Source of the DNA: Escherichia coli
GTDB lineage: Bacteria > Pseudomonadota > Gammaproteobacteria > Enterobacterales > Enterobacteriaceae
DNA length: 5,879 bases
NCBI RefSeq assembly: GCF_003334815.1
Contig: NZ_QOWO01000071.1
Strand: one strand, 5' to 3'
The notes beneath the pieces were generated by a model that made no database searches, was not told the DNA's origin, and was given only the letters and a program-made list of their open reading frames with translations. Below are positions 1,590 through 3,254 of the stretch, piece after piece. The translations under genes and the position numbers were made by a program. Positions within the stretch are counted from its first letter, which is position 1. Each line of letters starts with the position of its first letter.

Positions 1590-3254
1590 TTAAAACGTTT
1601 CCCAGTTCTCCCCGCTATCTGCTACGGCCATTTTACGCGGCGCAGCTGGCGTCACGGTTTTTACCACAGCCGATGTTTCACGCTGATGTTGCTGCTGTTG
1701 CTGAATCCGGAACACTGCCACAGCTTCGGTCAGGCGACTGGCCTGCTCTTCCAGCGCGGCGGCGGCGGCGGCAGATTCTTCCACCAGCGCAGCGTTCTGT
1801 TGAGTTACCCGGTCCATCTCAGCGACCGCTAAGCCAACCTGATCGATACCACGGCTCTGCTCATCAGAAGCAGAAGCTATTTCGCCCATAATGTCCGTCA
1901 CGCGGGTCACAGCACTGACAATCTCCGCCATTGTTTCCCCGGCGCTTTCGACCAGCGTAGAGCCAACATCCACTTTCCCCACCGAGTCTTCAATCAGGCT
2001 TTTAATTTCACGAGCCGCCTGGGCGCTACGCTGGGCCAGATTACGCACTTCTCCCGCAACCACCGCAAAACCGCGCCCTTGCTCACCCGCACGCGCTGCT
2101 TCAACCGCCGCGTTCAAAGCCAGAATATTGGTCTGGAAGGCAATGCCGTCAATTACGCTGATAATATCGGCGATTTTCTGCGAGCTGGTGGAGATATCGC
2201 GCATAGTCTGTACTACGTTATCCACCACTTTGCCGCCACGTTGCGCCGTTTCAGAAGCACTTAACGCCAGGTGGCTGGCCTGGCGCGCATTCTCGGCGTT
2301 CTGTTTCACCGTTGCGGTCAGTTGCTCCATGCTGGCTGCCGTCTCTTCCAGCGAAGCGGCCTGTTGCTCGGTGCGCGAAGAGAGATCGTTATTGCCGGTG
2401 GCGATTTCGCTGGCACCGCTATAAATGGCATTGGCCCCGTTGCGCACATCACCGACGGTACGCATCAGCTCTCCCTGCATATGGCGCAAACTCTCTGCCA
2501 GTTGCCCCATCTCATTAGAGCCATCCACCTCAATCGGTTTCACCAGATCGCCGCCTGCAATATGACGAATGCTGTCAATCAGGCGATTCATTGGCGCTAC
2601 CAGCGAGGCTTTAATACCGAACCAGACGGCGAAGATGACCGCCAGTACGACGATCATCACGCCCACCAGAATCCACATCGCCTGGCTGTAGGAGGCATTA
2701 TTATCGCTGACGGCGATATCATAGAGCCGATCGTTTTGCTCCATGTAAGCCACATACTGCTTCTCGAAACCGTCCTGATATCCCTGGGTCGGCTGATCAA
2801 AGAACTCGTTGATTTTGCCTGCACCTAACAGTTGGATCAGCTCCGCCAGCGCATTGTGATAAATATCGTAATTACGTTTGATCTCTGCCGCTGCGGCGGT
2901 GCTCTGACGCGGGTCACGCGGCAACGCTTCGTAATCCGCCCAGTTTTTTTCCGCCTGTTTCAGCGAAATACTGGCACTCTCCATCAGCTCAGCAACGGTT
3001 GAACCGCTACCAATATTATTCTGATCCATCATGTAGCGGATACCCGCGCGGTTGAGGGTGTTACGCGTCTGCAACAACGCGACCCAGCTGCCATTCAGCG
3101 TGGATTGCTGCTGGCGAATGGTTTGTAAAACAGTGAAATTTTCTTTGTCATTCTTTAAGGCATTAAAGAACAGACCGCCTGATGTCAGTTGTAAAAGGCC
3201 AAAAACGGCCAAAACCAGCAGTAAGCTGGTCACAATTTTGATACGTTTTAACAT
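1590..3254 (-). CDS. tsr: Methyl-accepting chemotaxis protein I, serine chemoreceptor Tsr, 554 aa
   Basis: 554-aa ORF on the - strand. It has an N-terminal TM segment, a periplasmic domain, a second TM segment, a HAMP region, the highly conserved MCP signalling hairpin ([40 protein letters not shown]), methylation-helix EE/QE motifs, and the C-terminal NWETF pentapeptide that docks CheR/CheB. ATG start at 3252-3254 with an AGGA SD 10 nt upstream. About 3 residues longer than the 551-aa K-12 Tsr as I recall it. Confidence 0.95.
1683..1703 (-). repeat. tsr: CAG/CAA trinucleotide tract encoding QQQQQHQ in the Tsr C-terminal flexible tether
   Basis: The - strand reads cag caa cag cag caa cat cag (Tsr residues 518-524), in frame and immediately before R-E-T-S. 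Confidence 0.8.
1755..1772 (-). repeat. tsr: (GCC)5GCG trinucleotide tract encoding Ala6 in the Tsr C-terminal region
   Basis: The + strand shows cgg cgg cgg cgg cgg; the - strand codons are GCC x5 followed by GCG, giving ...[13 protein letters not shown]... Confidence 0.8.
1781..1788 (-). other. Chi site (GCTGGTGG) on the - strand, inside tsr
   Basis: The + strand reads ccaccagc at 1781-1788, the exact reverse complement of Chi. Confidence 0.6.

Follow-up and report, generated by a model that had tools for sequence, protein, structure and literature searches.

A short GCC repeat encoding the methylation-helix alanine tract of Tsr varies rarely and recurrently in length among Escherichia coli genomes

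RESULTS AND DISCUSSION

The alanine tract of the serine chemoreceptor Tsr was found to be encoded, in the E. coli DNA analyzed, by an uninterrupted GCC repeat that lies in a structured helix, methylation helix II (MH2), between E493 and E502 and outside the disordered tether, and that varies in length in few genomes and on independent haplotypes. We regard it as very probable that this tract is a short coding microsatellite, with slippage acting in the pure run and the six residues held by purifying selection. The pure (GCC)5 repeat is a codon choice within a conserved alanine run and not an independently selected DNA element; its purity at the DNA level is incidental, as the protein requires six small residues and the paralog Tar encodes Ala6 with mixed codons. 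The microsatellite exists because the conserved six-residue alanine stretch of MH2 is written with GCC five times consecutively. The alanine run itself is already on record for Tsr, which ranks among the most thoroughly studied receptors of bacteria, and the finding is real but ordinary and matters little alone.

A pure GCC repeat in tsr

The window, i.e., the whole 5,879-nucleotide stretch of DNA that was analyzed, carries the tsr coding sequence on the (−) strand (1590..3254, stop included; 554 amino acids), which encodes the serine chemoreceptor in a Q7-type allele with His523. Two further genes are present in the window on the (+) strand, lgoT (180-1541) and a cstA-family transporter gene (3616-5781). 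The identity of the tsr open reading frame was supported by (i) its tsr label in 5,383 of 5,426 complete E. coli genomes when searched with the 3′ 311 nt of tsr, with strain HS30-1 at 100% identity over this 311-nt query; (ii) the Pfam domains of its product (TarH, HAMP, and MCPsignal); and (iii) its PDB matches (3ZX6, 6S1K, 1QU7, and 8C5V), all of which are Tsr.

The alanine tract, in its pure uninterrupted form (GCC)5GCG, is positioned at 1755..1772 ((−) strand) and encodes A495-A500, the 'MH2 alanine tract'. The (+) strand of the window reads CGCGGCGGCGGCGGCGGC at these positions, the reverse complement of which is GCC GCC GCC GCC GCC GCG, in frame with the tsr open reading frame and in the protein context QQNAALVEE493-S-AAAAAA-L-E502-EQASRL. 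The tract was called by Tandem Repeats Finder at 1756-1772 with a period of 3, 5.7 copies, and 100% matches, and the (GCC)5 15-mer was absent from all 200 shuffled versions of the window that preserved its dinucleotides. Thus, the description in an earlier note on this DNA of an in-frame (GCC)5GCG tract coding for Ala6 at this site was correct by the sequence and the codon table.

Location in methylation helix II, outside the tether

The alanine tract is bracketed by two adaptation (methylation) sites of Tsr: E493 (codon GAA, 1776..1778, (−) strand), which is site 4, and E502 (codon GAA, 1749..1751, (−) strand), which is the fifth, minor site. Both glutamates are in methylation helix II (PMC1079850), with E502 also described in PMC9282233, and the published context of site 4, QQNAALVEE493SAAAAAAL (PMC1079850), includes the tract. 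PMC9282233 and PMC11571029, both from the Parkinson laboratory, name a conserved alanine tract between sites 4 and 5 in Tsr and 36H-class MCPs; its six residues (A495-A500) and its flanking sites are the same as those found here, though there the tract is a protein feature and here it is the DNA-level repeat and its natural alleles that are described. The heptad g positions of MH2, given in PMC9282233 as L490, A497, Q504, and A511, imply a continuous heptad register across the alanine tract. In PMC11571029 and its preprint, the same laboratory proposed that this 'conserved MH2 alanine tract' facilitates the transition from a-d to x-da packing at a cap-sites dynamic junction. In Tsr, conservation of the kinase-control domain ends at residue 517, with a 34-residue C-terminus beyond it in K-12 (PMC4692393). 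The structural assignment of the tract was made from this literature and from PDB construct boundaries: the tract is contained in 1QU7, a solved construct that extends to about residue 520, and in 8C5V, another that extends to 516. The Pfam MCPsignal model stops at residue 484, short of the tract, which a domain scan would by itself leave unplaced.

The earlier note had put the alanine tract in the same disordered region as a nearby glutamine tract, and in this respect it fails, as the alanine tract is in MH2 between E493 and E502 and the tether begins after residue 517. A tract that formed part of the disordered C-terminal tether would undergo neutral changes in length and behave as a free-running indel hotspot like the glutamine tract. 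In keeping with such a reading, length variants of the alanine tract exist, the Pfam model leaves the segment unassigned, and the two tracts are only 51 nt apart, with the glutamine tract downstream in the coding sense (the note's "just upstream" and about 70 bp were right). However, the reading is already contradicted and we give it next to no credence, based on (i) the location of the tract between the two adaptation sites with its residues in the heptad register of MH2 (PMC1079850 and PMC9282233); (ii) the extension of the conserved domain to residue 517 (PMC4692393), with the alanine tract ending at residue 500 and the glutamine tract, at 518-524, lying beyond this boundary; (iii) the six-residue spacing kept in 109 of 120 homolog representatives and in Tar; and (iv) the scarcity of variants, with 28 length variants of the alanine tract itself in roughly 5,100 genomes assessed and about 0.7% of genomes carrying any variant of the alanine region, whereas each glutamine allele is common. 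The two tracts are in different structural regions and differ in behavior, with glutamine variants being common alleles and all alanine-region variants together remaining at this low frequency.

The glutamine tract, Q518-Q524 (QQQQQHQ; 1683..1703, (−) strand), opens the non-conserved tether and was detected by Tandem Repeats Finder with a period of 9. Its codons are CAG CAA CAG CAG CAA CAT CAG, with the CAT encoding His523, and it can be read as two 9-bp units of CAGCAACAG (the second of which is CAGCAACAT here) followed by CAG. The actual tether is the flexible C-terminal linker of residues 518-549 (1608..1703, (−) strand; boundary from PMC4692393), which leads to the NWETF pentapeptide of residues 550-554 (1593..1607, (−) strand), the docking site of CheR/CheB by the codon table and PMC4692393. 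Homologs differ in sequence and length beyond FRI. The CAGCAACAG unit is present in one copy in K-12 (Q4), two copies in most strains (Q7), and three copies in HS and LF82 (Q10), with roughly 1,050, 3,100, and 225 genomes, respectively, as estimated from search identity bands; a 302-nt span was found in about 22% of evenly ranked matches to the tsr 3′ query. The Q4 and Q7 forms are also represented in PDB entries 6S1K and 3ZX6, respectively. Single-chain Tsr experiments revealed that linker length hardly mattered above a minimum (PMC4692393), and the length variation of the glutamine tract agrees with this tolerance. The glutamine tract, thus, belongs to the flexible linker with NWETF common to Tsr and Tar and is length variable, and the earlier suggestion that it is a site of indel polymorphism in the tether holds in the form of a common 9-bp length polymorphism. 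In contrast, the alanine tract is 18 residues upstream of the start of the linker and is without its length tolerance.

Two DNA forms of the tract and their length alleles

Alignment of tsr alleles revealed two DNA forms of the Ala6 tract: (GCC)5GCG, which is pure and was found in the window, EC20, IAI1, and CE10; and GCC GCT GCC GCC GCC GCG, which is interrupted and commoner and was found in K-12, O157:H7, and HS. The two differ by one synonymous GCT/GCC change. By the identity bands of synthetic queries, the pure form was estimated to be present in about 1,750 genomes (3,343 with the Ala7 query minus 1,596 with the Ala5 query) and the interrupted form in about 3,330 (1,596 plus the 1,732 in the 90-95% band of the Ala7 query). 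The number for the pure form agrees with the 1,824 genomes that are at most one mismatch from an EC20-type 120-mer. A 120-nt span was kept in all 59 full-length matches taken at even rank steps over 5,345 records; a count at ≥80% coverage with the 120-nt query is blind to indel alleles, with 3-nt gaps aligned through.

Length alleles were detected with synthetic Ala4, Ala5, and Ala7 queries, by which a true variant outscores every Ala6 allele if its flanks have no more than about 2 mismatches. Among the 5,426 complete E. coli genomes, Ala5 was found in 16 (ungapped 61-nt match), Ala4 in 11, and Ala7 in one, ETEC1703, the tsr of which has an internal stop and a pseudogene annotation. These counts are lower bounds, as the queries tolerate about 2 flank mismatches and the search covered variant lengths of Ala4, Ala5, and Ala7; about 270-320 tsr-bearing genomes had no match to the short queries. 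All 12 of the variants that were fetched have pure runs, including (i) six Ala5 alleles of (GCC)4GCG; (ii) five Ala4 alleles of (GCC)3GCG; and (iii) the Ala7 allele of (GCC)6GCG. None of the three lengths was found on the GCT-interrupted background among about 3,330 genomes, a background that the Ala5 and Ala7 queries match exactly. Overall, there were 28 variants in about 1,780 pure-tract genomes versus 0 in about 3,330 interrupted ones. Base-by-base reading covered 12 of the 28 Ala4, Ala5, and Ala7 alleles, as well as three of seven deletion alleles and the single duplication allele of the 33-bp type described below. When all of these are combined, length variants of the alanine region are carried by 36 of about 5,383 genomes (0.7%). 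Most of the variant tsr alleles are intact open reading frames, and some were found in several isolates. Among the sources of the carriers are humans, pigs, poultry, cattle, and water, with no evident pattern of host or niche.

The suggestion of the earlier note that the tract is a hotspot of in-frame indel polymorphism was, thus, borne out weakly: right in kind, as in-frame Ala4, Ala5, and Ala7 alleles exist; small in size, given the low frequency of alanine-region variants; and wrong in its structural premise. The note had named an absence of length variation across E. coli tsr alleles as the outcome that would count against it, and such variation is present at the counts given above. Its proposed search for ±3 bp indels did find whole-codon changes, though the events are not confined to this size and include changes of −6 bp and ±33 bp.

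Recurrence in uninterrupted runs and the case for slippage

The 12 sequenced Ala4, Ala5, and Ala7 alleles were found on several haplotypes that are 10-31 SNPs apart. Regarding the INDEPENDENCE of events, the six fetched Ala5 alleles are on haplotypes separated by 15-24 SNPs per 894 nt, represent four protein accessions, and have either lgoT or a TRAP permease gene next downstream. For two of the Ala5 haplotypes, many Ala6 genomes are identical except for the 3-nt gap. The Ala6 twins IAI1 and CE10 are exactly one GCC apart from the Ala5 alleles of these haplotypes and otherwise identical over 894 nt. Similarly, the five fetched Ala4 alleles are on at least four haplotypes, one of which (NCTC9064) differs by 2 SNPs from the rare QQQQQHQ haplotype of the window itself and another of which is the same as that of the Ala5 strain EA7. 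Overall, runs of (GCC)3, (GCC)4, and (GCC)6 were found on at least eight haplotypes, and whole-unit changes are, thus, recurrent on independent haplotypes. The direction of unit change was strongly biased, with 27 losses versus one gain. An origin of Ala5 from the interrupted tract through loss of its GCT was also considered and was rejected for two of the haplotypes, whose twins IAI1 and CE10 carry the pure tract.

The contrast between pure and interrupted tracts rests on about eight or more events and not on 28, as the genomes are phylogenetically non-independent and clonally biased. At least about eight independent events were identified, all in pure runs, and pure runs make up about one third of the genomes; if events were blind to tract type, the chance of this outcome would be roughly 0.35^8, or about 2 × 10−4, by rough arithmetic. 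An interrupted tract that yields no variants is what is expected of a slippage microsatellite, and this was the pattern found across these events.

It is textbook knowledge that short triplet runs undergo slippage. Short coding trinucleotide microsatellites that change by slipped-strand mispairing share with the tsr tract whole-unit changes, a deletion bias, recurrence, and stabilization by interruption. Compared with such microsatellites generally, the tsr tract has only five units, a strong constraint on length, and variants at less than 1%. We propose that use of the favored codon GCC five times in a row generates the uninterrupted (GCC)5 run, that replication slippage in this run would remove, and more rarely add, GCC units to give Ala4, Ala5, and Ala7, and that the single GCT of the commoner allele would break the run and suppress slippage. 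The Ala variants would then be recurrent, young alleles of low frequency.

Every variant is rare, and the deletion strain 500111 and the Ala7 strain have other annotated pseudogenes with internal stops, such that the quality of these assemblies may be lower. It could, thus, be argued that the Ala4, Ala5, Ala7, and ±33-bp alleles are artefacts of sequencing or assembly in a GC-rich repeat. We consider this very unlikely, as identical variants recur among independent assemblies that differ in laboratory and country of origin, as for the shared-allele groups of (i) HM670, KE48, KE51, SFAD3, and OZ546918; (ii) UTAK-1 (USA), OkiPb01711 (Japan), and MB49; and (iii) FDAARGOS_497, Ecol_881, and 500111. 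In addition, the variant proteins have RefSeq WP accessions of their own, some common to several of the fetched genomes; Ala4 is present on ENA metagenome contigs, the longest of which is recorded in four samples; and a triplet run of 15-18 nt is well within read accuracy.

Reciprocal 33-bp deletion and duplication

Two 11-nt direct repeat copies, identified from the sequence and the codon table, surround the events of 33 bp. The upstream copy, C GCT GCG CTG G (1784..1794, (−) strand), is within the codons of N487-V491, and the downstream copy, C GCC GCG CTG G (1751..1761, (−) strand), comprises the last 7 nt of the alanine tract and CTGG, which includes the codon of L501; the two copies are the endpoints of the events. 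The copies are spaced by 33 nt and, in the window, differ at one of their 11 positions, while in many other alleles the match is perfect (CGCCGCGCTGG). A precise 33-bp deletion was found in seven genomes, on two haplotypes that are 13 SNPs apart and have different neighboring genes; its product joins …QQNAAL to EEQ…, with the loss of residues LVEE493SAAAAAA. The reciprocal 33-bp tandem duplication was found in one genome, 2013C-3492, in which Tsr is 565 amino acids, and the unduplicated twin haplotype of this allele is carried by strain 90-3040. The 33-bp alleles were counted with strict E-value cut-offs and from single full-length alignments only; coverage counts are unsuited to them, with two half-matches of the wild type joined as one 100% place.

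Misalignment or recombination between the 11-nt copies could give rise to both the 11-residue deletion, in which E493 is lost, and the reciprocal 11-residue duplication. The perfect 11-nt repeat, the presence of both reciprocal products, and the precise junctions are shared with deletions and duplications at short direct repeats that arise by replication misalignment. Unlike the usual short direct repeats, that of tsr derives from a periodicity of the protein (AAL-VEE and AAL-EE, 11 residues apart) and, as a consequence, the 33-bp products stay in frame and shift the helix by 11 residues. From coiled-coil geometry, in which 11 residues equal 7 + 4, the duplication would resemble a stutter and the deletion a stammer, while changes of −1 and −2 residues would put the helix further out of phase, by about 103 and 206 degrees, respectively.

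Probable purifying selection and the possibility of a tuning function

Three features of the alanine tract form a signature of purifying selection: variants at 0.7%, their location at the tips of otherwise Ala6 haplotypes, and conservation of length across the family. The tract is within a helix of continuous heptad register, and purifying selection for this reason probably keeps the six residues in >99% of genomes; selection is likely the cause of the rarity of the variants, which may be functionally impaired. Selection against the variants is not absolute, as several persist as intact open reading frames in more than one isolate, including an Ala5 haplotype shared by five genomes.

That variants recur and persist as intact open reading frames in several lineages might instead suggest a tuning or contingency locus, in which the number of alanines turns the MH2 cap with respect to the methylation sites, resets the ON/OFF bias or methylation of site 5, and is selected by niche. 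The location of the tract at the cap-sites 'dynamic junction', where it was proposed to ease the a-d to x-da transitions (PMC11571029), is compatible with such a role. We find this improbable, as the variants are of very low frequency and at the tips of Ala6 haplotypes, as expected of mildly deleterious mutations, the run has only five units, most E. coli carry the interrupted form that is resistant to slippage, and the carriers do not follow a host or niche pattern. Moreover, the changes in the tract are in frame and, thus, no on/off switch is generated. Phase-variable contingency loci switch expression on and off at high frequency, and classical contingency loci do so at a high rate, whereas the tsr tract has an in-frame unit of 3 nt and variants at <1%. 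A broader form of this idea, in which the natural tuning knob comprises both alanine length and the 11-residue deletion and duplication, resets Tsr kinase bias or adaptation through rotation or displacement of the MH2 cap against the adaptation sites at the cap-sites dynamic junction, and is favored in particular lineages or niches, is likewise assigned little probability. If true, it would mean that site 4 is lost, respaced, or duplicated relative to site 5 and that these alleles are more than transient deleterious mutations.

With slippage under purifying selection as the preferred explanation, the neighboring repeats of tsr provide a contrast in how selection may filter repeat instability: the tract in the helix has rare variants at haplotype tips and only in uninterrupted runs, whereas the tract in the tether has three common alleles. 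The natural MH2 series of Ala4, Ala5, Ala6, Ala7, the deletion that removes E493, and the duplication that doubles it also offers ready-made perturbations at the proposed 'dynamic junction', and this allelic series could be used to probe whether the alanine tract mediates helix-rotation transitions. In a literature search that was not exhaustive, no mention of the (GCC)5 repeat, its interrupted sister allele, Ala4, Ala5, and Ala7, or the ±11-residue alleles was found in the consulted portions of PMC9282233 and PMC11571029. A literature search for an earlier report of coding triplet-repeat polymorphism at E. coli tsr returned nothing relevant, and another retrieved no experiment in which a single residue had been deleted from the methylation helix of Tsr.

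Conservation of the alanine tract among homologs

Homologs were collected with the C-terminal 115 amino acids as the query, and the matches were mostly short fragments. Among the 120 cluster representatives, which are Tsr/Tar-like C-termini of Enterobacterales, the 109 noted above have six residues between the positions of S494 and L501; the remainder have five residues (n = 6) or four residues (n = 5), and none has seven, with the 11/120 share of short variants overstating the true frequency because indel-bearing fragments cluster separately. In the 108 six-residue representatives that could be parsed by pattern, A495 and A497 are invariant, position 498 is nearly so, and positions 496 and 500 are Ala or Ser. 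The E. coli paralog Tar has the same SAAAAAAL, encoded with the alanine codons GCT GCC GCC GCC GCT GCG. Gene conversion from tar was considered separately as a source of the length alleles and was ruled out, as tar likewise encodes Ala6. Short variants of the alanine tract in other taxa were also found to be pure repeats, including (GCG)5 and (GCC)3GCG.

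Length variation in tsr at a direct repeat and in the Gln tract

An 11-nt direct repeat, CGCCGCGCTGG, was found at window positions 1751-1761 and 1784-1794 (- strand), with a spacing of 33 nt between the copies. Alleles with a 33-bp deletion at this repeat were detected in seven genomes and represented two haplotypes (loci L003, L032, and L033); the deletion is in frame and removes 11 residues of Tsr, including the methylation site E493. The reciprocal duplication allele was identified in one genome (strain 2013C-3492, locus L007), where both E493 and the Ala tract are doubled. 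The direct repeat mediates the in-frame deletion of 11 residues as well as the reciprocal duplication. The duplicated allele also carries a CAG to CTG change (L007, about 1610-1615) that results in Q504L, at heptad position g of methylation helix MH2 in the MH cap. Q504L is not a compensatory change, since this haplotype has it both with the 33-bp duplication (2013C-3492) and without it (strain 90-3040, search match H171).

Variable-number repetition of a 9-bp unit was observed in the Gln tract, where the tether begins (window 1683-1703, - strand; loci L031, L001, and L004). Comparison of the alleles revealed one, two, or three copies of the unit CAGCAACAG followed by CAG, with Q4 in K-12, Q7 in the majority of strains, and Q10 in HS and LF82; each of these three alleles is common. 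In the window's copy the tract is interrupted by a rare CAT codon (His523), and only 76 genomes displayed at least 99% identity to the window (311 nt queried).

Synonymous variation in the Ala tract and other features of the locus

The O157:H7 strain 2159 (L008) and IAI1 (L034) share the same Tsr accession, WP_000919571.1, yet differ in tract DNA, which is interrupted in the former and pure in the latter; therefore, the pure/interrupted difference is purely synonymous and cannot be seen by protein-level surveys. The sole Ala7 allele (L019, ETEC1703) belongs to a tsr copy that contains an internal stop and is annotated as a pseudogene.

Tandem Repeats Finder also reported a 10-nt unit, AAACGGCCAA (2.2 copies, 91% matches; window 3193-3214), inside the 5′ end of tsr where the N-terminal transmembrane segment is encoded; this repeat is probably a chance match.

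Downstream of tsr is lgoT, an MFS transporter gene (window 180-1541). The 3′ neighbor of tsr varies by strain (loci L005, L006, L013, L014, L017, L019, L026, L027, L030, and L032), being lgoT in the window and K-12 and a TRAP transporter large permease gene in many others, and is a gene-content polymorphism immediately adjoining tsr. Two strains that carry the 33-bp deletion, 500111 and FDAARGOS_497 (L003 and L033), have an annotated lgoT pseudogene with an internal stop.
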